Source of the DNA: a bacterium
GTDB lineage: Bacteria; Patescibacteriota; Minisyncoccia; Phycocordibacterales; Phycocordibacteraceae
Length of the DNA stretch: 64,000 bases
Assembly (NCBI GenBank): GCA_021849125.1
Contig: JAJZTG010000001.1
Span: forward strand, 18,392 to 82,391
Direction: 5' to 3'
Every line of letters begins with the position of its first letter. The stretch's first letter is position 1. The notes under the pieces are model-generated. The model had not been told where the DNA came from. It saw only the letters and a program-made list of their open reading frames with translations, and did not search any database. A program made the translations under genes and the position numbers. This document shows positions 16,870 to 53,282 of this stretch, in pieces.

Positions 16870-18126
16870 ATGACCCTCGCAGACGAACTCAAAGGACGCG
16901 GGCTCGTAGAGCACGCGTCCGCCGACGTCGAGAAGATTCTCGAGAAGCCGCGGACCGTCTATCTCGGTATCGACCCGACCGCTGACTCGGCACAGGTAGG
17001 CAACCTCGCTGTCCTCCTTCTCATGAAGCGCCTCTCGGACGCAGGCCATAAGCTCGTCTTCCTCGTGGGTGGCGCGACGGGCATGATCGGCGACCCGAAA
17101 GAGAAAGGGGAGCGCTCACTCCTCGACGAAAAGACGCTTGCAAAGAACACGCGCGCTATCAAGACTCAGCTGAAGAGCCTTCTTGGCAACAAGGTGCGCT
17201 TTATGATGGTCGACAACGCTGACTGGCTCACTCGTGTAAAACTCATCCCGTTCCTTCGCGATATCGGCAAGCACTTCACGGTCAATGAGCTCGTGAAGCG
17301 CGAGATCATCAAGAAGCGTCTTGAGACGCCGGATGAGAGCATTTCCTACACCGAATTCACCTACGCGCTTCTCCAGGGTCTCGATTATCTGACGCTCAAC
17401 GAAAAATACGGCGTCGACCTGCAGGTAGGCGGCTCAGATCAGTGGACGAACATCCTCTCGGGTGTCGATCTCGTCCGCAAGAAGAGAGGGCAGGAGGTCT
17501 TCGCGCTTTCGATACCGCTCGTTACTGACGCTTCCGGAAAGAAATTCGGCAAGAGTGAAGGCAATGCCGTCTGGCTCGACCCGAAGAAGACTTCGCCGTT
17601 CCAGTTCTACCAGTTCTGGATCAATCTCCCCGATGACAACCTGGAGACGTATCTCAAAGTCTATACGTTCCTCCCGCTCCCGGAAATCGCGGCGCTCATG
17701 GAACTTCACCGCCGTAATCCAGGCGAGCGCCAGGCTCAGGAGACGCTCGCGCGCCTCGTCACCGAGATCGTCCACGGCCCTGCGGCAGTCGCTCAAGCAG
17801 CAGCAGCTAGCGACGCGCTCTTTGGTCGGATCGCATTTGCCGACCTCTCCCGCGAAGCGCGCGCCGTCGCGCTTGCTGAAGCCCCGTCAGTCACAATTGC
17901 TAAAAAGGATCTCGAGAGCGGCTACTCGCTCGCTGAGGCGCTCGTCACCGGCGGTCTTGCAAGTTCCAAGAATGATGCGCGGCGCCTTATCGAAGGGAAG
18001 GGGGTCTCGCTCTCGGGATTCACGATTGAGAACCCGAATCAGGACCTGCACATGGCCGACCTCCCGGGCGGCTACGCGCTCGTCCGCAAAGGCCGCCAAG
18101 GCGTCCTCATCCTCGTTTTGAAATAA
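16870..18126 (+). CDS. tyrS: Tyrosine--tRNA ligase
   Basis: YLGIDPTADS, QVGGSDQWTNI, KFGKSEG, C-terminal S4-like domain. Confidence 0.97.
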   Translation: MTLADELKGRGLVEHASADVEKILEKPRTVYLGIDPTADSAQVGNLAVLLLMKRLSDAGHKLVFLVGGATGMIGDPKEKGERSLLDEKTLAKNTRAIKTQLKSLLGNKVRFMMVDNADWLTRVKLIPFLRDIGKHFTVNELVKREIIKKRLETPDESISYTEFTYALLQGLDYLTLNEKYGVDLQVGGSDQWTNILSGVDLVRKKRGQEVFALSIPLVTDASGKKFGKSEGNAVWLDPKKTSPFQFYQFWINLPDDNLETYLKVYTFLPLPEIAALMELHRRNPGERQAQETLARLVTEIVHGPAAVAQAAAASDALFGRIAFADLSREARAVALAEAPSVTIAKKDLESGYSLAEALVTGGLASSKNDARRLIEGKGVSLSGFTIENPNQDLHMADLPGGYALVRKGRQGVLILVLK

Positions 18127-18171
18127 AAACAACCGGCGATAGGTTCGCCGGTTGCGTTCTGTTGGACAGGG

Positions 18172-18414
18172 CTAAGGGAGATCTTTGTGTATTTCGTGGA
18201 GCACCTCCTTGGGCATCCGGGCGGTTGCTGCGGCTGCAGCAGACTCCTCCGCGTCGCGTGACAATTGATGCTTCAGGCCTTTAAGGTACCTCAATGCTGC
18301 TTCTTTTCTACGTTGAAACCTCTCGCGCCGTACGACAATACCAATAAGGACCAAAATGCCGGCAATCAATACAACCCACACTACCGGGATGTGGAAGACG
18401 ATTTCGCGGTACAT
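18172..18414 (-). CDS. Small single-TM hypothetical protein
   Basis: MYREIVFHIPVVWVVLIAGILVLIGIVVRR; purine-rich SD upstream; converges on the tyrS hairpin. Confidence 0.5.
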   Translation of the reverse strand: MYREIVFHIPVVWVVLIAGILVLIGIVVRRERFQRRKEAALRYLKGLKHQLSRDAEESAAAAATARMPKEVLHEIHKDLP

Positions 18415-18524
18415 GGTGTGCCTCTCTTTCTGCACTGTTGAATCTGCTGCCAGGATAGCACTTTCCGCCCCACCGGCAATCTGCTACGCTAACCTTGGAC
18501 AACTTAAGTAGAAGGAGTCTGATA

Positions 18525-18713
18525 ATGCCCGAAAAGATTCTCCAAAAGCCCGACGGCACATTCGTACTGCTCGCTGTGCCCAAAGTTGGCATTAACCATG
18601 CCATATCGTGTGCAGAGACACATGCCGCGCATAAAGTACATTACAACGGCACCTGGCCGCAAGGAGTGCCGCCCAAAACGGAGGAATCAAGTATTTGGTC
18701 ACTGTGGCACTAA
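18525..18713 (+). CDS. Small hypothetical protein
   Basis: 62 aa after SD GAAGGAG; terminator cggccccgca..tgcggggccgtttt. Confidence 0.45.
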   Translation: MPEKILQKPDGTFVLLAVPKVGINHAISCAETHAAHKVHYNGTWPQGVPPKTEESSIWSLWH

Positions 18714-18782
18714 TCGACCTCGGCCCCGCAATATGCGGGGCCGTTTTCATTCCTATCTCAAACATGATAATATCCTCTTACT

Positions 18783-18866
18783 GCGTCGGTGGCGGAGTGG
18801 TCAATCGCAACAGACTGTAAATCTGTCGGGCATAGCCCTACGAAGGTTCGAATCCTTCCCGGCGCA
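18783..18866 (+). tRNA. tRNA-Tyr (GTA)
   Basis: Acceptor GCGTCGG/CCGGCGC+A; anticodon arm ACAGA-CTGTAAA-TCTGT; long variable arm; T-arm GAAGG-TTCGAAT-CCTTC. Followed by CAA, not CCA. Confidence 0.97.
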
Positions 18867-18902
18867 CAAACGTACAAAGCCCGAAAGGGCTTTGTACGTT
18901 TG

Positions 18903-19048
18903 TGCGCCGGAGCAGTGCTGGGAGCACTGCGTGAAGGATTCGAAGACCTTGCGAGCATGTTTTGCGATTTCCTGAAGCAAAACATCCGCAAGGTGTACTG
19001 AAGCTGTAAGCTTCGAAAAATGTAATCATGGTCCTTCCCGGCGCACCA
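18903..19048 (+). ncRNA. tRNA-associated structured element (copy 1) with an antisense segment matching tRNA-Tyr and a duplicated tRNA 3' end
   Basis: TGCGCCGG[AGCAGTGCTGGGAGCACTGCGT]GAAGGATTCGAA is the reverse complement of the tRNA 3' 20 nt, split by a hairpin. The scaffold is shared with copy 2. Ends with TCCTTCCCGGCGCACCA. Confidence 0.8.
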
Positions 19049-19051
19049 GCA

Positions 19052-19078
19052 AAAACGAGCGACTAAGTCGCTCGTTTT
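19052..19078 (+). terminator. Intrinsic terminator after the element
   Basis: aaaacgagcgac-taa-gtcgctcgtttt. Confidence 0.75.
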
Positions 19079-19096
19079 GTGTTATATTTGGGTCAT

Positions 19097-20053
19097 ATGG
19101 CAGAGAAACCCGTCCTCGTTTCCGGCGTGAAGCCGACTGGTGACCTCCACATCGGCAACTACTTCGGCGCGATGCGCCAGTTCGTCGAACTCACACGGAA
19201 AGGGGAGTATCGTCCGTTCATCTTCGTTGCCGACTACCACGCATTGAATACGATGCAGGACGCCGAGGAGATGCGCCGCCGCATCCGCGAGATCGTAATG
19301 GCCTACCTCGCGATCGGCCTCGACCCTGAACAGGTCGTCTTCTTCAAGCAGTCGGACGTGCCCGCCCACACCGAGCTCTGCTGGATTTTCGATACCATCA
19401 CGACGATGCCATACCTCATGCGCGCACACGCTTTCAAGGATGCTGAAGCGAAAAACAAGGAGATCAATGTCGGCACGTTCAACTACCCGATGCTCATGGC
19501 CGCTGACATCCTCCTCTACGACGCAAAGGTCGTCCCGGTCGGAGCTGATCAGAAGCAGCACATCGAGATCACGCGCGACACCGCCGAGAAATTCAACCGC
19601 ATCTTCAAGGAAGAGGTCTTCACGCTTCCAGAGCCCTACATCATGCCCGAAGTCGCGACCGTGCCCGGCACCGATGGCCAGAAGATGAGCAAGAGCTACG
19701 GTAACGTGATCCCGCTTTTCGCCTCCCGCGACGAGCTCCACAAGCGCGTCATGAGCATCGTCACGGACTCCTCAGGCGGCCGCCCCGAAAACGTCTACGC
19801 AATCCACAAGCTGGTCCGAAGCGAAAACGAGCTTGAGACCATCTACCAGGAGAACGAAGGAAACTACAAGGCGCTCAAGGAACTCCTCGTCGAGGATCTC
19901 GATGCGTACTTCGCTCCGATACGCGCAGAGTACGAAGAGCTCGCAAAAGACGACAGCATCGTCGACGCGATCCTCGCGAAAGGGAAGCAGGAGGCTCGCG
20001 CGCTGAGCGAAGCGAAGATGGGCCTCGTCCGTGGCGCTATCGGCGTTGCATAA
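19097..20053 (+). CDS. trpS: Tryptophan--tRNA ligase
   Basis: SGVKPTGDLHIGNYFGA, VPVGADQKQH, KMSKS. Confidence 0.98.
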   Translation: MAEKPVLVSGVKPTGDLHIGNYFGAMRQFVELTRKGEYRPFIFVADYHALNTMQDAEEMRRRIREIVMAYLAIGLDPEQVVFFKQSDVPAHTELCWIFDTITTMPYLMRAHAFKDAEAKNKEINVGTFNYPMLMAADILLYDAKVVPVGADQKQHIEITRDTAEKFNRIFKEEVFTLPEPYIMPEVATVPGTDGQKMSKSYGNVIPLFASRDELHKRVMSIVTDSSGGRPENVYAIHKLVRSENELETIYQENEGNYKALKELLVEDLDAYFAPIRAEYEELAKDDSIVDAILAKGKQEARALSEAKMGLVRGAIGVA

Positions 20054-44940: not shown

Positions 44941-46857
44941 TTATGCCACACTCTCCTTATGCTGATTAAGTGGAAGAGCCAGATAGAAGGTCGTTCCCTT
45001 CCCTTCTTCTGATTCGAACCAGACAGAACCCTTCATGAGCGCAGTCATCTTATTCACGATGTAAAGGCCGAGACCGTTACCGTCTGGATCAGCCGTTTTT
45101 GCATTATCGGCACGGAAGAAACGGGTAAATATCTTTTCTTGATCCTTTTGAGGAATGCCGATGCCCGAGTCTTGCACGGTAATCACCATCGACTCTTCGG
45201 ATACCTCCCTCCCTCCTACCGAGCTCCCCGCCGCCGCATGGGCGCAGGAAATATGTACACTGCCTTTCTCTGGTGTGTACTTGATCGCGTTAGAAATAAG
45301 GTTTTGCAGAATGATCTTTGCGATATCCGGATCGATGCTGAATGGCGATAGTCCGCTGCAGCTTTCCGAGACGTCGATCTGCTTATTCCGTATGCTTACC
45401 GCGAACTCCTCAAGCGTCTCCTGTCCGAGCTTTGCGAGATCCATCTTCACCGGATGCACCTTCATATCGCCAGTCTCAAGCCGGAGCACGTACAGGAAGG
45501 ACTTCAAGATATCGTTCATCTGCCTGGCGGCGGCATAGAGCTTCTCCACATAATCCTCCTGCTTCTTGCTCAGAGCGCCCGCGTCCCCTTCAAGAAGCAT
45601 CTCCAGATACCAGCTCATCGTCGTGATCGGCGTGCGCAACTGATGCGATGCGAGCGAGATGAATTCGCTTTTCGCTTGGTCGACCTCCTTGAGCTTGGTG
45701 ATGTCCTGTTCGACGCCGAGGAAGTACGCAACCTCTCCGTCAGGTCCTAAGATCGGCGAGATGTGAAGCTCGGCATCATACCGCCCTCCATCTTTCCGAC
45801 GATTGACAATCTGTCCCTCAAAGACCCGCTTCGCATGGATCGTAGCCCACATCTTCTGATAGAAGTCCTCGGACATCTGCCCGCCCCAGAGAGCCGGCGT
45901 CTTGCCGATGATTTCCTCCCGCGGGAAGCCGGTAAAGTGCTCCGCATTCTTATTCACGAAAATGATCTTTCCTGCCGGGTCGGTAAGCATGATGAGATCG
46001 GAAGCTGAGTCCACTGCCATCTTGAATTTCTTGAGTTCCTCGGCGCTTTTACGGAGAGCCTCTTCCGCTTTGACTTTCTGGGTGACATCCTCGACCGTAG
46101 ACATAGCGCCGATAACCATGCCGTCCTTATCCCGAAGCGGCGTATTGGTCCAGTCGCAAAGGATCGTCCGCCCGTCCTTGGTGATATTTTCGTTCAGACT
46201 GTTTGCCGTCGACTCGTCCCCTTGCAGGAGCTTGTGCCAGACGATTTCGACTTGGGGCTGCACTGCCGTAGGAACGATCGTGCCGTAGGGGTGCTTCCCT
46301 TTCATCTCCCCGAAAGAGAAGCCGAATATCTTTTCCGCTGCCGCGTTCCAGGTTACGACCTTGAAATCCTTGTCCCATACGACATGCCCGATGGGCAGAC
46401 GGGAAATCTCGAGTTCCAGCCGCTCTTCGCTCCGGCGCACAGCCTCTTCGCTTTCCTTGCGTTCGGTCACATCTCGGAAGGTACCAAGAAGATACTGCTT
46501 CCCCCCGAGTACGATCAGGGATGAATTGATATCCGCGTAAAATATGCGCCCGTCTTTTCGGAGTACCGGGATATCCCTCGCTATGCGTATCTCCCTACGC
46601 GCCTGCTTCTCGAACTCTTCAAGGACATGCGGCAAGGCGTCGGACGGATGGATGTCCGTCACGCCCATGCTACGAAGCTCCGCTTCACTATAGCCGAGCA
46701 TCTGAGAGAAAGCCTCGTTGACTGCGAGGAATCTCTTCGTCTCTACGTCCGCAAACGCAAGCCCGTCAAGCAAGCTGTCAAAGAGCAGTTTGAACTCCTT
46801 GTCTTCGGTGAAGCTCCCTTCGGGAAGACCCTGCTTTCGTCTGAAGGAGAACGTCAT
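44941..46857 (-). CDS. Cytoplasmic sensor histidine kinase with three PAS domains
   Basis: Three PAS/PAC repeats, H-box ASHQLRTP, N-box NLISNAIKYT, DSGIGI, GNGLGL. Confidence 0.95.
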   Translation of the reverse strand: MTFSFRRKQGLPEGSFTEDKEFKLLFDSLLDGLAFADVETKRFLAVNEAFSQMLGYSEAELRSMGVTDIHPSDALPHVLEEFEKQARREIRIARDIPVLRKDGRIFYADINSSLIVLGGKQYLLGTFRDVTERKESEEAVRRSEERLELEISRLPIGHVVWDKDFKVVTWNAAAEKIFGFSFGEMKGKHPYGTIVPTAVQPQVEIVWHKLLQGDESTANSLNENITKDGRTILCDWTNTPLRDKDGMVIGAMSTVEDVTQKVKAEEALRKSAEELKKFKMAVDSASDLIMLTDPAGKIIFVNKNAEHFTGFPREEIIGKTPALWGGQMSEDFYQKMWATIHAKRVFEGQIVNRRKDGGRYDAELHISPILGPDGEVAYFLGVEQDITKLKEVDQAKSEFISLASHQLRTPITTMSWYLEMLLEGDAGALSKKQEDYVEKLYAAARQMNDILKSFLYVLRLETGDMKVHPVKMDLAKLGQETLEEFAVSIRNKQIDVSESCSGLSPFSIDPDIAKIILQNLISNAIKYTPEKGSVHISCAHAAAGSSVGGREVSEESMVITVQDSGIGIPQKDQEKIFTRFFRADNAKTADPDGNGLGLYIVNKMTALMKGSVWFESEEGKGTTFYLALPLNQHKESVA

Positions 46858-46866
46858 ATACGGCGG

Positions 46867-47238
46867 TTATTTCGACCGGATGAGCGCTTCTTTGATCTTC
46901 TCGATGATCTCGTTGATAGGATGCTCCGCCTTGACGTAGTAGTCCGTAGCGCCGAGCTCCATCGCGTGCTTGATATCGCTCTCCTCGCCGAGGTTCGACA
47001 CGACGACGACCGGCACAAGCTTGAGCTCTTCATCGGCTTTCAAGGTTTTCAGGACCTCGAAGCCGCTCTTCTTCGGCAGTAAGAGGTCGAGGACGATGAC
47101 ATCGGGCACGAGTTCGCGTGCCGCAACGATAGCACGCTCGCCATCGGAAGCGATGACGACATCGTCACCTGTCCGTTCGAGCTTTTCTTGGATAACCTTC
47201 GCGAGCACCTCCTCATCTTCTACGATCAATATCTTCAT
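46867..47238 (-). CDS. Single-domain response regulator
   Basis: KILIVEDE, VLDLLLPKKSG, GATDYYVK. Confidence 0.95.
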   Translation of the reverse strand: MKILIVEDEEVLAKVIQEKLERTGDDVVIASDGERAIVAARELVPDVIVLDLLLPKKSGFEVLKTLKADEELKLVPVVVVSNLGEESDIKHAMELGATDYYVKAEHPINEIIEKIKEALIRSK

Positions 47239-47272
47239 ATGTGATTACTATTACCAGCTAACGATCTCGGAG

Positions 47273-48733
47273 TCATTCGATCTCTTCGATATTCTCCACT
47301 GCGTACTTCCCGAACTTCTCCGCGGTTCCTCTGATATGCAGCAAGAGCGACTTTACCTCTTCCAGGTCTTTCTTATGAAGCGTATCTTCCTCGCATTTCT
47401 CAAGGATAGTGGTTATATCCTTCTGTACCAAGCCGGAGACTGCCGTGATGTCTCGCGCAGCGATCACGACCTGGCGGCGGCGGCGCTTGATGCCGAGCCG
47501 GTCGAGATAACGACCGAAAAGGATACCGCCTGCGAGCGCCACGACGAGCACCATGAAGAGCCAGAACTGCGTCACGCGGAAACCTCCGATGACCAGCACA
47601 GGCGGCGCGAGGATCTCAATCGACAGGCGTGCCTCCGTCGTATTCCCGGCATTATCTACTGCCTGGACAAGAACCTTTTTCGTCCCAAAAGTCTGCTGAG
47701 GGAGCACGTAGTGGTGCTCAACTGCAGTGCTTGTCGTCGCCAGTTCCCCATCAACAAAGATCTTGAAAAGAGCGATGCCTGAAGGTTGATCTTTCGCGGA
47801 GAAAGTAATAGCAGGTGCCACGTCTTCGGTTTTAAGCCCGTCCAAGGATTCGACGAGAAGATTGATGGGTGGTGCCGTATCAATACCGATACGATAATGC
47901 GCGGCCGTACCCCACCCGAGCGCATTCCTAAAGCGCACATGCAAATACCAGATACCGTCATCGAGCGGTGCAAAGGTCTGATTGTCGAAGAGACCCTCCG
48001 ACTCGGTCGGGTTAAAGCTCGGCTGCCGGTTGACCGCCGTGGCGACAGCCGTCACGTCATTTGGCAGATCCCACTGCGCGAGAAATTTCGAGTTATGCGC
48101 GTACCATCCGGTTGGATCCGGATAGAGAGGCACTGACACTTTCGGCTTGGCCGGCAGCGCCCCGCTCGGGACCGCTGGACGCACAATTTGCGGCGGTTTG
48201 ATGAGGGCGGCGTCTTGCTTCGTGATGCTCGTGAGCTCAAGACCGTTCATCGCGGAAAGCACGTTGGTACCGCTTCCGTCGCTTGCCGTGACTGCTCCGT
48301 CAGAAAAGACCAGCCGGACGGCTCCAGCCCCCTTCACCTTGAAGGCGATGCGTAGGATTTCGAGATCCTGCCCGGAAACGCCGTTTTGAGCACCTCCGAT
48401 GAAGCTCACTTTCCCGGTATCGTTCGAATATTCCGGCCCTTGGAGCCAGAAACTGAAGACGGACGTACTCCTGTCGAGACTCGTGACCTGAAGGATATCT
48501 CTCGGGTACGAAAGGGTCGCTTGCGCCGCATTCACGCCCACGTCTGCGCTTCTGAGCTTGATGTCGACCGTGAACGTATCCCCGATGACGAACGTCTCCT
48601 TGCTCGTCGAGAGGTCGAGCGTTGCCGCGTGCGCCATCATCGGAAGCGCGAGCGAGAGGGCTGCGATCCCGATTCCGGAAAGCAGTGCCCGATACTTGAT
48701 GAGCGAGGTCTGGAAGAAAGGGTGCGTGTTCAT
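47273..48733 (-). CDS. Secreted cohesin-domain protein with Ig-like domains and a C-terminal TM helix
   Basis: Signal peptide; GDTFTVDI...NAAQATLSYP..IL...FSFW...SDGSGTNV cohesin-like region; DGIWYLHVR; DTAPP; TM near the C-terminus. Confidence 0.75.
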   Translation of the reverse strand: MNTHPFFQTSLIKYRALLSGIGIAALSLALPMMAHAATLDLSTSKETFVIGDTFTVDIKLRSADVGVNAAQATLSYPRDILQVTSLDRSTSVFSFWLQGPEYSNDTGKVSFIGGAQNGVSGQDLEILRIAFKVKGAGAVRLVFSDGAVTASDGSGTNVLSAMNGLELTSITKQDAALIKPPQIVRPAVPSGALPAKPKVSVPLYPDPTGWYAHNSKFLAQWDLPNDVTAVATAVNRQPSFNPTESEGLFDNQTFAPLDDGIWYLHVRFRNALGWGTAAHYRIGIDTAPPINLLVESLDGLKTEDVAPAITFSAKDQPSGIALFKIFVDGELATTSTAVEHHYVLPQQTFGTKKVLVQAVDNAGNTTEARLSIEILAPPVLVIGGFRVTQFWLFMVLVVALAGGILFGRYLDRLGIKRRRRQVVIAARDITAVSGLVQKDITTILEKCEEDTLHKKDLEEVKSLLLHIRGTAEKFGKYAVENIEEIE

Positions 48734-48742
48734 GCGAATCGA

Positions 48743-51700
48743 TTATTTCTTAAGCGTACGGACAAAGATGCTCAGATCAGTGACATCGAGCACGCCATCG
48801 CCGTTCAAGTCATCGAGCATGCGGGTTGCAGCGACTGAAGACGACCAGCGCGCGAGGAATACGCTCCAATCCTGGACATTGATCACACCATCCTGATTGA
48901 AATCGGTCTGCGGCGTAAAGAGTGTTGAGACTTCGAATACTTTCTGCGGAGAGTAGTCGCTTGTTGCACCCGCGGTAACCTGAAGAACACGTACCGTATG
49001 GCTGCCAAGCGAAAGATCAGCAGTCGGGAACAAGAGCTTGTAAGAACCATCCTTTGCCGCTACTGCTTTCCCAGCAAGCGTCACGCCGTCTACCTGCGCT
49101 TCGACGGAAGCGCCGGGAGTCGCCATGCCGACGAACCCGACAAAATCACCTTTGCGGACAACCGGACTCACGAGGCCTAATGTCGGTGACAAGAGCGTGG
49201 CACTCAAGGTCAAAAGCGCGTTTGGGTTTGCGTAGTTTACGGAAAAGACTTTCGTCTGCGTGACTCTACCGAGCGAATCCACACCGACGATACCGTACGC
49301 ACTCGCACCAGTCGCGATATTGCTTAAGGTCGTCGAGAAAGCGCCTCCGGATGAAGCGACGATTTCAGCTTGACGTGCCGACTCTTGCGGCGTTACGGCG
49401 AGCATCTGCACTCGAGCGCCCGGGAAAGCTTGTCCTGAGATACGAGTACCTGCGATCGGCTTTACGGCACCAAGGCCCGCACCACCGCCGATCGGCGCAA
49501 CCGGCGTCGCTGAGAAGAGGAGCGATCCAGTCGACGAGACATCGAGGCCGGTACCCTCGCTATCAGTGAGCGAAAGGGTCACCGTCTCGGCAACCATGTC
49601 GTTCAGGGTAAGCGTTCCGACGCCGTTCACGATATTCACGAGACCGGCACCCGTTGCCGAACCGGTCACGTGCAGCGTCACGTCGTTCTCGTACGTCGTA
49701 TCGATGTTGCCCGCATCATCGGTGGCTTCGACGGTTACGGTTGCCGGCGTACCGATCTGTACCGGCCCTGCCGGCAGGATGACGAAACGTGTCGCAACGA
49801 TCGGAAGCGGACTCACGGTCACCTCATCTGTCGCGTCGACGATACCGACCGCACCGTTAGGGCCGGATGACGAATCAGAAGCCGTGACCGTCCAGGTGCC
49901 GGCTTTCTCGTCGTAATACCAGAAGTTCGTGGTCGATTGGCCATCATTTACTGTGGCAACGGTTATGGGAATGCCGCCCATCGCGGCATCGTAGAATTTT
50001 GCGGCGCTGCCGGTCGAAGAAGTGTAAAGGTACGCGAGCGTGACACCGGAGGTTACGAGATTGCCGTACTCATCCTTGCGCGCGAGGGTGTACCCGAGAC
50101 GCGTACCCGCCGTCATATCGCCAGGGTCGTTCAAAGTGAACGCGCTCACCGCAGCAGGCGTCACCGTGAGAGCATCGCTCGCGTCGGCGATACCAGCGGC
50201 CCCATCCGGCGCCGATGCATTATCGGAAGCCGTGATGTACCAATCCCCCGCTTTCTCGTCATAGGCCCAGAAAGTTCCCGAGGAGTCTCCATCAGCGATA
50301 GTGAGCGACGTGATAGCGCTACCGCCGCTTGCGGCGTCATAGAACTTCTTATGTGTGCCATCGGACGTGCTGTAAAGATACGCGGTCGTCGCGCCTGCGG
50401 TCACCAAATTGCCGTACTGATCCTTGCGCGTGAGAGTGTACCCGATGCGAAGTCCAGCGGCCGTGTCTCCCGGATTATCAAGCGTAAACTGAGCAACGGC
50501 GCCAGGCGCAAAAGCTACAGATCGCGTCGACGAGACGTTGAGTCCAGTACCTTCGGTATCGGAAAGCCCGAGATGGACCGTCTCTGCTGCCGTATCAGAA
50601 ATCGCAAGAGTGCCGACACCGTTTACGATATTCACGAGACCCGCTCCTGTCGCCGAGCCATCTGCGGTAAGCGTGACGTCTTGCGTATAACTCGTATCGA
50701 TATTCCCGCTACCATCCTGAGCTTCAACCGTTACCGTAACCGGTGCATCGACCGTACCATCGCTAGGCGGCAGAATAACGAAACGCGTCGCAACGATAGG
50801 CGCTGGATTTACGACGACCGAGTCTTCACCGTCAGCGATACCGACGATGCCATCCGGTGCGGAGGCGTTATCGGAAGCCGTGATCGTCCAGGTGCCGGCT
50901 TTCTCGTCGTAGTACCAGATATTCGCTGTCGCATTGCCAGCGACGATGGTGACAGAGGTCACGGGAGAACCCCCCGAAGATGCGAGATAGAATGCATGCG
51001 TCCCGCTCGACGAGCTGTAGAGATATGCGGTCGTTGCTCCCGAGGTTGCCAGGTTGCCGTACTGGTCCTTACGTGTAACCGTGTAGCCGAGACGGGTTCC
51101 GGCTGTCATGTTTCCAGGATCATTGAGGGTGAAGCCCGCGACTGCGGCAGGAGTCACGGTAAGCGAGTCGACCGCATCATTGAGACCCACGTTACCATCG
51201 GGCGCGGAGGCGTTATCGGAAGCCGTAATCGTCCAGGTACCGGCTTTCTCGTCGTAGTACCAGACAGTAACGGAGGATGCTCCGTTTGGGATCGTGATCG
51301 AGGTAATGTTGTTGCCTCCCGTCGCTGCATCATAGAATCTCTTATTCGTGCCTGTGGAGGAACTGTAGAGATAGACGATGTCCGTACCCGACGTGCGTGG
51401 ATTGCCATACTGATCGCTTCGCGTGACGGTGTAGGCCGCACGTTCACCTGCGGTGGCTGATGTCACGTCACTAATGGTGTACTGAGCGGTAACGCCTGAA
51501 CCGAACGTAAGCGGCTGTGTCGACGAGACATTGAGTCCAGTACCTTCGGTATCAGCCAAGGAGAGTGTAATTGTTTCTGCAACGGTATCTGAGATCGCGA
51601 TCGTGCCGACGCCATTGACCATCATGACCAGACCGCTGCCAGTAGCGGAACCCGTCGTATGCACCGTCACACCCTGTTGGTAATTCGTGTCGATACTGTC

Positions 51701-52666
51701 GTCTGCCTTTTCCGCTTTCACCGTCACCGTTACCGGCGCGTCGACCGTTCCGCTTCCAGGCGGTTCGATGACGAACTTCACCGCTTCAGGATTCACCGTG
51801 AAAGTGTTCGATACGCCCGCTTTCGTCCCGCCATGATCGACTGCCGTGATTGTCTTATTCGTACCTGCGCGCGAGACGGTCACCGACTCCGTACGAACGC
51901 CTCCGGCAAATGTCCCTGAGATAGCGGGAAGAATGGTGCCTGCATTGGTCGAGAGGTCGACGGTACCCGTATAGGACGTAATCGTGTTCTCATGCGCGTC
52001 CTTTGCGGTCATCGTTATCGAGAACGGGATAGCCGTCGTCTGCTGTCCGATAGCCGCGAAGGTAAAGTGATCAAACGCGCCGACAACTTCAGTGAGCGTA
52101 CCAAAATTCGTAACCCCATCGGTTACGCCTGAGATGACTGATGTACCGCTCTTGGTGATGTTGCCTGAAGCGAGTGGCGAACCCGCGGTCGGGCGCACGC
52201 GGACATTTTGCCAGGTGAGCGAATTCCGGACGCCGTTACTTGTTGAGGCAGTGACGGTGATGGTGAGCGTCGTGCTCGTTACACCCACCGCTATGGTCGA
52301 GCCGCTTGGGAGATCGTTGATGTTGCGGTTGTTATTGCCGCCACCGCCCGTGCGCGTCACAAGCACAGTCGGCGCGGTGCCACCCGTGTCGAACTGGAAT
52401 CCAGACGGGACATTCAAGATGATCGTGCCTGTGCCGATATCCCCGGTCGCTGCTTCCTCGATCACGGGACCGGTAAGGCTCGTATACGTGCCCCCTGTCG
52501 TGTCCGCAGAAATAGAACTGCCGCCCGTTGCGGAGGTAACTGTTACGGCTGCAAGTACGGTGGACGCACCGCTAAAAAACAGAAGTCCGACTAGAAGCGT
52601 CGAGAAAATAAACCGCACATGTTTTTGAGTGACAAATAGAGCATTGAGTTTCGAGGTAATGAGCAT
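48743..52666 (-). CDS. Large repetitive surface protein with a C-terminal dockerin-like double EF-hand
   Basis: Signal peptide; T/S/G/A-rich repeats; C-terminal DFNQDGVINVQDWS and DLNGDGVLDVTDLS. Confidence 0.85.
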   Translation of the reverse strand: MLITSKLNALFVTQKHVRFIFSTLLVGLLFFSGASTVLAAVTVTSATGGSSISADTTGGTYTSLTGPVIEEAATGDIGTGTIILNVPSGFQFDTGGTAPTVLVTRTGGGGNNNRNINDLPSGSTIAVGVTSTTLTITVTASTSNGVRNSLTWQNVRVRPTAGSPLASGNITKSGTSVISGVTDGVTNFGTLTEVVGAFDHFTFAAIGQQTTAIPFSITMTAKDAHENTITSYTGTVDLSTNAGTILPAISGTFAGGVRTESVTVSRAGTNKTITAVDHGGTKAGVSNTFTVNPEAVKFVIEPPGSGTVDAPVTVTVKAEKADDSIDTNYQQGVTVHTTGSATGSGLVMMVNGVGTIAISDTVAETITLSLADTEGTGLNVSSTQPLTFGSGVTAQYTISDVTSATAGERAAYTVTRSDQYGNPRTSGTDIVYLYSSSTGTNKRFYDAATGGNNITSITIPNGASSVTVWYYDEKAGTWTITASDNASAPDGNVGLNDAVDSLTVTPAAVAGFTLNDPGNMTAGTRLGYTVTRKDQYGNLATSGATTAYLYSSSSGTHAFYLASSGGSPVTSVTIVAGNATANIWYYDEKAGTWTITASDNASAPDGIVGIADGEDSVVVNPAPIVATRFVILPPSDGTVDAPVTVTVEAQDGSGNIDTSYTQDVTLTADGSATGAGLVNIVNGVGTLAISDTAAETVHLGLSDTEGTGLNVSSTRSVAFAPGAVAQFTLDNPGDTAAGLRIGYTLTRKDQYGNLVTAGATTAYLYSTSDGTHKKFYDAASGGSAITSLTIADGDSSGTFWAYDEKAGDWYITASDNASAPDGAAGIADASDALTVTPAAVSAFTLNDPGDMTAGTRLGYTLARKDEYGNLVTSGVTLAYLYTSSTGSAAKFYDAAMGGIPITVATVNDGQSTTNFWYYDEKAGTWTVTASDSSSGPNGAVGIVDATDEVTVSPLPIVATRFVILPAGPVQIGTPATVTVEATDDAGNIDTTYENDVTLHVTGSATGAGLVNIVNGVGTLTLNDMVAETVTLSLTDSEGTGLDVSSTGSLLFSATPVAPIGGGAGLGAVKPIAGTRISGQAFPGARVQMLAVTPQESARQAEIVASSGGAFSTTLSNIATGASAYGIVGVDSLGRVTQTKVFSVNYANPNALLTLSATLLSPTLGLVSPVVRKGDFVGFVGMATPGASVEAQVDGVTLAGKAVAAKDGSYKLLFPTADLSLGSHTVRVLQVTAGATSDYSPQKVFEVSTLFTPQTDFNQDGVINVQDWSVFLARWSSSVAATRMLDDLNGDGVLDVTDLSIFVRTLKK

Positions 52667-52991
52667 TGCTCTAATGATAGAGCACAAAAAGATTATCTCG
52701 TGGCATATTTATGATTTCGTGTGGATAGAAGCTCCATATAAACCAAAGATCTATTCATGTATACAGGCTCGCATGATACACGATTGGCTCCCGGTTCTAT
52801 ATCGAAGACTAAATCCGTAATCATCTTCTTCATCGATTTTTTTATTAAAGATCCCTATCTAGGGATTCTTTTGTCCTAACGACTTCCATTGAAGCTATCT
52901 TGGATATCCGAGACGAGATATTCAGTATTTATATAAGAGCAATAGGAAACCTTATTTTCTAATTTATCTATGTTCGCTTAAACAAGACAGA

Positions 52992-53040
52992 CGAAAACCG
53001 CCCTAGAAGGGGCGGTTCCGCATTTGTGACCTCACGGGGA
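52992..53040 (-). repeat. 49-bp direct repeat of the tRNA-Glu 3' end plus its terminator (other copy at 53176-53224)
   Basis: tccccgtgaggtcacaaatgcggaaccgccccttctagggcggttttcg occurs twice on the minus strand. Confidence 0.95.
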
Positions 53041-53170
53041 CCGCGAGTACGCTTATCGATCCTTACAGGATCAGTGCACCTTGCGGATTTTCTGTTCGCT
53101 ATGCTTCAGAAAATGCTCGCAAGGCCTTCGATTCCCCGACGCAGTGTCTCCGAGACACTGCTTGAGGTCA
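53027..53170 (-). ncRNA. tRNA-associated structured element (copy 2) with an antisense segment matching tRNA-Glu
   Basis: TGACCTCA[AGCAGTGTCTCGGAGACACTGCGT]CGGGGAATCGAA is the reverse complement of the tRNA-Glu 3' 20 nt, split by a hairpin; the scaffold is homologous to copy 1. Confidence 0.8.
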
Positions 53171-53210
53171 AAACGCGAAAACCGCCCTAGAAGGGGCGGT
53201 TCCGCATTTG

Positions 53211-53282
53211 TGACCTCACGGGGAATCGAACCCCGGTTTGATCCGTGAGAGGGATCTGTCCTAGCCGCTAGACGATGAGGCC
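53211..53282 (-). tRNA. tRNA-Glu (CTC)
   Basis: Acceptor GGCCTCA/TGAGGTC+A; anticodon arm GATCC-CTCTCAC-GGATC; T-arm CGGGG-TTCGATT-CCCCG; no encoded CCA. Confidence 0.96.

Follow-up and report, generated by a model that had tools for sequence, protein, structure and literature searches.

The tRNA-linked repeats (TLRs) of Escherichia coli, known since 1978, include the 178-bp repeats of tyrT/tyrV, RttR and the repeats of the lys operon (PMC8144298, citing Egan and Landy 1978 and Rudd 1999). Their function and origin are described there as unexplained. The same article does not mention an antisense arm of the TLRs, and the words "inverted," "mobile" and "insertion" are absent from its text; Rudd 1999 may mention an inverted arm.

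The stretch of 64,000 nucleotides analysed here (the window) holds two copies of an element that resembles these repeats in several respects. Like the element, E. coli TLRs lie directly behind a tRNA (or rRNA) gene, end in a repeat of that gene's 3′ end (18–19 bp in TLRs) and occur as one to several tandem copies; in some, as at lysQ, the terminator is duplicated. By eye, the TLRs also have a degenerate antisense arm in the register 68-59 (10/10 for Tyr, 9/10 for Lys); in a scripted comparison of own with other tRNAs this arm scores 8–9 versus 6 of 10 for Tyr and 7–8 versus 7–8 for Lys, the latter being poorly separated. No antisense arm is evident in the rrnB TLR. C-GNA-G hairpins in the TLRs favor the tRNA strand by 26 to 1. 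The element differs from TLRs in that its arms are near-perfect and are split by two hairpins (A and C), its sense copy starts at 57/60 rather than at 58/59, and it is found at 33 isoacceptors and, in addition, in a free form without arms. A covariance model of the element, run on E. coli TLRs (L216–L218), gives no match below an E value of 0.27; the repeats themselves score 0.98–3.2, the best value (0.98) falling on the tyrV repeats. In layout and working the element is thus TLR-like, but the model finds no sequence homology that would support common descent.

We found no prior description of this element in the literature searched, beyond the TLR work. Consistent with the first-pass annotation of this DNA, which had recognized no named family, an Rfam scan at gathering and E-value thresholds returned only tRNA, with no family over the element and no match for RttR. 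The design nevertheless has a precedent, in the E. coli TLRs. Our preferred reading, which we place at a probability of about 0.5, is that the element is a non-autonomous, TLR-like miniature insertion presenting a folded, single-stranded DNA (ssDNA) attachment site.

Parts of the element and their match to the host tRNA

A full element consists, in order, of antisense 73-66, hairpin A, antisense 65-54, a core stem-loop, the linker GTACTG, a GTA hairpin, sense 57-59, hairpin C and sense 60-73 (tRNA numbering). Its sense arm is positions 57-59, a 14-nt hairpin and then 60-73. Two tRNA-linked copies with antisense, scaffold and sense parts had been described in the window, and all of these parts are present (Table 1). 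In the Tyr copy, the scaffold measures 87 nt and the distance from antisense start to sense start (position 60, 19032) is 129 nt. The Glu copy has its parts in the same order, with a hairpin A of 24 nt, a scaffold of 86 nt, an antisense-to-sense distance of 130 nt and a direct repeat of 49 nt that covers most of the trailer. The sequence blocks attributed to a shared scaffold do occur in both copies, but one of them, TCGAW, tracks the host T-loop and is not constant scaffold: W is host position 59, the base at 57 follows the host too, and the first TC pairs within the GTA hairpin. The pairing there is GA..TC in 120/129 copies and GG..CC in 5/129.

Table 1. Parts of the Tyr and Glu copies, in window coordinates
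Feature	Position	Strand	Remark
Host tRNA-Tyr(GTA)	18783..18867	+	intact; positions 54-73 = 18847-18866
Tyr copy, proximal trailer	18867..18902	+	perfect hairpin; one palindrome with tRNA 3′ end and antisense
Tyr copy, antisense arm 1	18903..18910	+	complement of tRNA 73-66
Tyr copy, hairpin A	18911..18932	+	22 nt, GGG loop, at 66/65 boundary; left part of arm-less, apparently mobile unit
Tyr copy, antisense arm 2	18933..18944	+	complement of 65-54
Tyr copy, core stem-loop and linker	18945..18999	+	CCTTG...CAAGG, GTACTG
Tyr copy, GTA-triloop hairpin	19000..19014	+	right end of arm-less unit; 6 bp, among them TC (positions 55-56)
Tyr copy, sense T-loop	19015..19017	+	positions 57-59
Tyr copy, hairpin C	19018..19031	+	14 nt, between positions 59 and 60
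Tyr copy, sense 60-73 and CCA	19032..19048	+	probably the displaced original end
Tyr copy, distal hairpin	19049..19078	+	terminator-like; ahead of TrpRS-type synthetase gene
Host tRNA-Glu(CTC)	53210..53282	-	intact; positions 54-73 = 53230-53211
Glu copy, proximal trailer	53171..53210	-	
Glu copy, antisense arm 1	53170-53163	-	
Glu copy, hairpin A	53162-53139	-	
Glu copy, antisense arm 2	53138-53127	-	
Glu copy, core stem-loop, linker and GTA hairpin	53058..53126	-	GTA hairpin 53072-53058
Glu copy, sense 57-59 and hairpin C	53041..53057	-	57-59 = GAT
Glu copy, sense 60-73 and duplicated trailer	52992..53040	-	49-nt direct repeat

The tRNA-Tyr gene stands between a TyrRS gene and the TrpRS-type gene (window 16870-20053), and congeners hold differing inserts there. 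Behind the Glu element (window 44941-52687, minus strand), an AT-rich spacer leads to a Kelch-like ORF of 1314 aa, an ORF with cohesin/Ig domains, and genes for a response regulator and a PAS histidine kinase, a block that was possibly acquired.

An exact core pattern, run over the species collection, gave 115 matches at 113 loci, and 82 copies were parsed for tests of the arms. At a fixed offset, antisense 65-54 agrees with the host tRNA at a mean of 11.4 of 12 positions, versus 8.5 for other isotypes; the antisense segment thus tracks the adjacent tRNA in further copies, as the first two had led one to expect. Sense 60-73 agrees at 12.0 of 14 positions versus 7.6 (n = 80), and position 59 agrees in 74/82 copies versus 28%. 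Arm 1 was placed by best match, which inflates its scores for test and control alike. Among 131 distinct elements, the arms track the host across 33 isoacceptors; position 57 is G/G/G in 111/129 and A/A/A in 11/129, and position 59 is concordant in 115/129. Where the tRNA 5′ strand differs from the complement of the 3′ strand, at G-U sites, the arm is the complement 51 times, the 5′ strand twice and neither six times, which bears out the earlier statement that the antisense arms complement the 3′ strand and are not copies of tRNA 5′ ends. There are exceptions. At L162, the antisense arm matches a T-stem allele other than that of its host, and at L153, position 59 is mismatched. An Arg(GCG) copy (L178, in G338:C52) has Arg arms, yet a Val-type tRNA 3′ end, which suggests a rearrangement through two cores.

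The sense copy of 55/57-73 is unbroken in 33 of the 115 anchored copies and split by the 14-nt hairpin in 61. Its distal acceptor part is often truncated or decayed (position 73: 85/115), whereas the antisense arm stays matched. Distal and proximal trailers differ in 66/78 copies, and CCA is distal-only in 11/76 versus proximal-only in 1/76. Both the trailer difference and the distal excess of CCA are expected of a displaced original end, and such an origin fits the distal copy.

Occurrence and the arm-less unit

The source genome (578 kb, 7 contigs) has seven matches to the model, which was built from 37 copies: Tyr, Glu, Lys twice in tandem, Ser(GGA), Ser(GCT) and Trp, the tRNA-Lys locus being a tandem of 2.3 copies. 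By eye, among 18 further tRNA/tmRNA trailers of this genome, a second core type with the same arms stands behind His, Leu(GAG), Asp, Ser(CGA), Val(GAC), tmRNA and a Leu fragment. This second type also lies ahead of the Trp copy, and hairpins A and C are optional in it. A tRNA ends within 130 nt upstream of 83/115 core matches. Among the remaining 32 are contig ends, copies that are stacked or nested, others that an island has displaced, and three to four arm-less copies. Model matches occur in 64/150 genomes of the family and in 87/150 of the order, at 0–21 copies per genome. A phylum-wide sample of 150 genomes gave one weak match, under strict filters for one core type, a result that does not imply the absence of other core types. 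Copies at the order level have many different core stems and keep the GTACTG linker and the GTA hairpin; tandem, stacked and nested copies are seen. In viral contigs, two core patterns had no match, and none of the 118 matches of a looser pattern was a true element. The element is real and widespread in one order of ultra-small bacteria, and the indirect evidence that it moves comes from several sides.

Comparison of related strains shows patchy occupancy of the tRNA-Tyr site. Among 19 congeners with a tRNA call (20 stretches, judged by eye), one has this core, two have another core, one has a right-end remnant, one has a possible left-end remnant and 14 have none, although one of these 14 shows 31 nt only.

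The recurrence of this design at 113 loci of independent assemblies makes an assembly artefact unlikely. An artefact or a chance palindrome could draw on the fact that no contig of four DNA runs spans the Tyr copy (a comparison of contigs only), but together with those 113 loci, the covariation of the fold and the 17 matches in a long-contig genome (G360) leave this explanation hardly credible.

Two tRNA 3′-end reiterations in the source genome, of Gly (C6:21708-21858) and Ile (C4:1284-1500), fit neither core type. At C5:57490-57570 of the same genome, and at L011, L035, L077 and L094, a palindromic insert of ~75 nt sits in the GTA loop of the element and forms a third tier of nested mini-elements.

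Hairpin A, the core and the GTA hairpin also occur together without arms, as a unit of ~95 nt lying in tRNAs, in other repeats and at other sites. In three copies from the core-pattern loci, hairpin A directly abuts the core. A metagenome scan for this junction, by a pattern that forces GG before the unit, found at least 120 loci; among the matches listed, 41 have a full core and 30 of them are distinct. The 31 delimited arm-less units (from the matches listed plus the three) are 78–105 nt long, with the GTA loop in 31/31 and a perfect 5-bp stem in 26. Their flanks, again among the matches listed, have at most 12 nt in common in 25/31 and longer duplications in six. Judged by eye, units of both orientations lie in tRNA T-loops, and others lie in the anticodon arm of tRNA-Glu, in second-type cores and at non-tRNA sites; ~2 nt are often replaced; rebuilding empty sites from the flanks restored a tRNA call in only 1/31. 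A search without the left-flank constraint in 401 + 259 genomes gave 20 matches, 17 of them real by eye; G precedes the unit in all 17 and GG in 14, and at least eight lie within second-type cores. This free occurrence shows the ~95-nt scaffold to be a discrete insertion unit. The arm-less form has subterminal hairpins, no terminal inverted repeats (TIRs) and no regular target duplication, and the docked form differs from it.

At three loci (L371, L376 and L044), an arm-less insertion was followed by a 60–98-nt duplication of upstream sequence that restores the start of the hit gene or the tRNA. The arms of docked copies could be by-products rather than an attachment site. An arm-less unit would be joined, as a hairpin cap, to a T-loop break, or a nascent strand would fold back at the trailer; repair would then produce the order sense-antisense-sense, an inverted triplication that surrounds the core, and the palindrome would stay matched through template switching. 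Several observations fit: one palindrome runs unbroken from the tRNA end through the trailer into the antisense arm; at L064 a long, perfect palindrome copies non-tRNA sequence too; the arm-less insertions in T-loops at L044 and L376 come with gene-restoring duplications; and the host is matched more closely by the antisense arm than by the distal acceptor copy. But on this explanation the distal trailer should be the source of the proximal one, when only 12/78 pairs have their first 8 nt in common, and it does not account for fixed hairpins of 22–24 nt and 14 nt inside the arms. We consider it rather unlikely.

From 157 tRNA calls in genomes with several copies, 59 elements were parsed, selected for an arm 2 of at least 9/12. 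Their nearest core lies in the same genome in 21/59 (shuffled 2.2; confounded with lineage) and at the same amino acid in 15/59 (shuffled 8.3). The Gly and Pro cores of G360 are identical, and the Val/Arg cores of G431 and the Ser/Arg cores of G412 are 0.96 alike, the G412 pair also having hairpins A and C in common. Nearest neighbors of hairpin A have the same host amino acid in 52.9/105 cases (14.9 shuffled), a signal that may partly reflect descent of one locus, and for the core the tendency is weak (22.4/105 versus 14.6 shuffled). Because the core barely follows the amino acid and near-identical cores stand at different tRNAs of one genome, cores appear to cross tRNA types readily, and whole scaffolds sometimes. 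The notion of a constant scaffold with a variable guide therefore survives in part: cores do cross tRNA types, but hairpin A is mostly tied to its isotype, and a single constant unit around an exchangeable guide does not describe the scaffold.

A folded strand, as DNA or as RNA

In the 37 copies, 97.9% of cells are paired in a structure drawn from the same 37 sequences, and two-sided changes occur in 19/35 pairs; slid controls are 36–49% paired, and the shuffle control is inflated by relatedness. The pair of anti-59 with sense-59 is formed in 36/36 copies, with four pair types. In 131 distinct elements, found at 33 isoacceptors, the loop of the small hairpin is GTA in 127; its stem is perfect in 119 and exists in 15 variants. 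The motif RC-GNA-GY occurs 76 times on the tRNA strand (34 in cores and 42 in trailers) and never on the other strand. d(GCGNAGC) is a stable DNA mini-hairpin, and its RNA counterparts are much weaker (PMC13037366). The restriction of GNA triloops to one strand, together with the prevalence of GTA loops, thus favors ssDNA over RNA, and we infer that the working form is a single, folded DNA strand of tRNA sense. In silico, the tRNA-sense strand of the docked form is predicted to fold back on itself, its antisense and sense arms rebuilding the duplex of positions 54-73; hairpins A and C stay outside the helix, and the core caps its end.

Comparable folds are known. In integrons, a folded single strand of attC acts as the recombination site. 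In the CTX phage, attP(+) is a fold-back site, and integration proceeds by one strand exchange and replication (PMC3442271). As in CTX attP(+)/IMEX and attC, one strand here folds back (in silico) to rebuild a duplex site with looped-out parts; in contrast to them, the target is a variable tRNA 3′ end and not dif or attI, and there is no cargo or phage. Non-autonomous derivatives of IS200/IS605, as well as REP/RAYT, are short, hairpin-built and strand-asymmetric. The arm-less unit resembles these in its lack of TIRs and of a regular target duplication, but there is no association with Y1, and the docked form duplicates and inverts 20 nt of its target.

Alternatively, the element could be a structured RNA, whether a read-through transcript acting as an acceptor/T-arm mimic and processed as are RttR and RrA/B/F, or an RNA guide for a bridge-like or retro-type mobilizer. 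The Tyr and Glu copies have strong RNA folds (z = -6.1 and -7.0; the DNA folds give -7.8 and -7.2, and for both kinds 0/200 shuffles are as good), hairpin A sits at the acceptor/T-stem junction and contains G-T over A-C by 14 to 4, and the distal copy is enriched in CCA. The TLRs of E. coli rRNA operons are, moreover, transcribed and processed (PMC8144298). Nevertheless, the triloops are GNA and GGG, and the RNA-type cUUCGg loop occurs once in the cores and hairpins A of 131 elements; the element sits behind a terminator-like hairpin and is patchy, nested and, when arm-less, found in either orientation; and the source genome contains neither a reverse transcriptase (RT) nor IS110. A structured RNA therefore seems unlikely.

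The bridge RNA of IS110 and the seekRNA of IS1111 combine a conserved fold with target-matched variable segments, and in this the element is like them. It is unlike them in that the source genome has no DEDD recombinase, the antisense segment pairs with an internal sense copy, and the loops are of DNA type. The guide analogy to bridge and seek RNAs that was first put forward is not supported, as the sense partner is built into the element, and neither the loops nor the genome (no IS110) fit it. The broader proposal of a tRNA-targeting, non-autonomous, structured mobile element fares better. The antisense arms track the host, and the element appears to move, given its patchy occupancy, its arm-less insertions and the near-identical cores at various tRNAs; the evidence favors ssDNA over an RNA guide.

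Proposed docking at tRNA genes, and candidate enzymes

The attachment-site model is supported by the host-tracking arms, the covarying fold, the DNA-type loops, the patchiness, the arm-less copies and the displaced-end signature. According to it, an enzyme acting in trans would use the fold-back as an attachment site and exchange one strand in the T-loop, between 55 and 60. Replication would then fix the insertion; the gene would receive the complete 3′ end brought with the element, together with its trailer, and the old end would be pushed downstream. CTX-phage attP or integron attC with a tyrosine recombinase would be the first models for this step, and an HUH-type enzyme the second. To judge from the module statistics, the element may arrive at new tRNA types chiefly when cores are exchanged at the near-universal TTCRA junction, and at times when a whole scaffold is; the arms would then take their new sequence from the target.

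Several points weigh against the model. First, the search found no enzyme gene in or beside the copies examined, neither IS110 nor RT in the source genome, and no link to Y1. Second, the rebuilt site varies with each tRNA, and an Xer-type enzyme must tolerate that. Third, a single strand exchange leaves three constant hairpins at fixed points in target-derived sequence unexplained. Fourth, hairpin A sits where the D and anticodon arms attach, which an RNA mimic fits better. Fifth, the distal acceptor copy is often decayed although the antisense arm remains matched. Finally, neither a circle nor an empty allele was seen in the contigs of the four DNA runs.

As to the enzyme, no gene for one lies in or beside any copy examined. 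The element contains no ORF. To judge from the sequence starts, none of the 30 largest ORF clusters next to the 80 wide loci, and none of the largest at the 31 arm-less loci, is integrase- or transposase-like. Longer copies with an ORF, which the first-pass annotation had proposed to look for, were found neither beside 80 + 40 wide loci nor at the 31 arm-less loci (with ORFs clustered for the 80 and the 31). The source genome has one Xer-like tyrosine recombinase, which is uninformative because such a gene is found in 147/151 genomes. Y1 presence is independent of element presence (51/87 versus 39/63, Fisher p 0.74), and six genomes with at least 10 copies have no Y1 match.

Individual candidates were considered as well. 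A RAYT-like Y1 gene of the source genome (229 aa, C4:46750-47510, minus strand) is flanked by, and contains, its own unrelated REP-like hairpins. The ends near two serine recombinases of this genome lack element motifs (by eye). A family of ~225-aa ORFs beside nine loci (L011, L046, L049, L056, L068, L084 and others), presumably HTH plus LAGLIDADG-like proteins, abuts tRNA 5′ ends and is absent from the source genome, and was therefore rejected as the mobilizer.

Williams, in 2002, reportedly placed tyrosine-integrase islands in tRNA T-loops. Such islands in tRNA genes also figure in bioRxiv 10.1101/2023.11.06.565760, which cites Williams 2002. The element has in common with them a T-loop breakpoint, a restored gene and a displaced 3′ fragment, but it measures only ~130–165 nt, has no integrase and has an extra inverted copy of the target. 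It might, then, represent shrunken attL/attR ends and regulatory hairpins of larger integrase islands, now immobile. Islands that target tRNAs typically have such a T-loop breakpoint and a displaced 3′ end, and islands do lie between tRNA and element at some loci, for example L019, L029, L050 and L076. However, the lack of a long ORF-bearing version at the loci surveyed, the constant length, the near-identical cores across tRNA types and the lack of a true copy in viral contigs all speak against such an origin, which the arm-less units weaken further, and we regard it as quite improbable. At the displaced tRNA ends of L019, L160, L102 and L111, shared short motifs around GGTTC are probably right ends of another island family.

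The reading of the element as a TLR-like insertion bears on the riddle of the TLRs, which might be footprints of an ssDNA mobile element: here, young copies whose arms are perfect occur by the hundred, a free form without arms exists, and the signatures of DNA hairpins are clear. If insertion is directed by the arms, they would provide a DNA-guided, retargetable route into tRNA genes that leaves the genes intact. It is conceivable, though doubtful, that this amounts to a self-programming ssDNA insertion system, in which the ~95-nt scaffold would copy 20 nt of any tRNA 3′ end as both arms and so direct site-specific, gene-preserving insertion, with TLRs as worn relics of this class across bacteria. 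Islands and other elements stack at the repeats, which are likewise hotspots of rearrangement between tRNA loci (as at L178), in genomes regarded as poor in mobile DNA. In the source genome, outside the window, a tRNA-Thr(TGT) gene (C7:108142-108818, minus strand) is split by an insert of ~600 nt that, by eye, is group I intron-like and contains a small HNH-like ORF.
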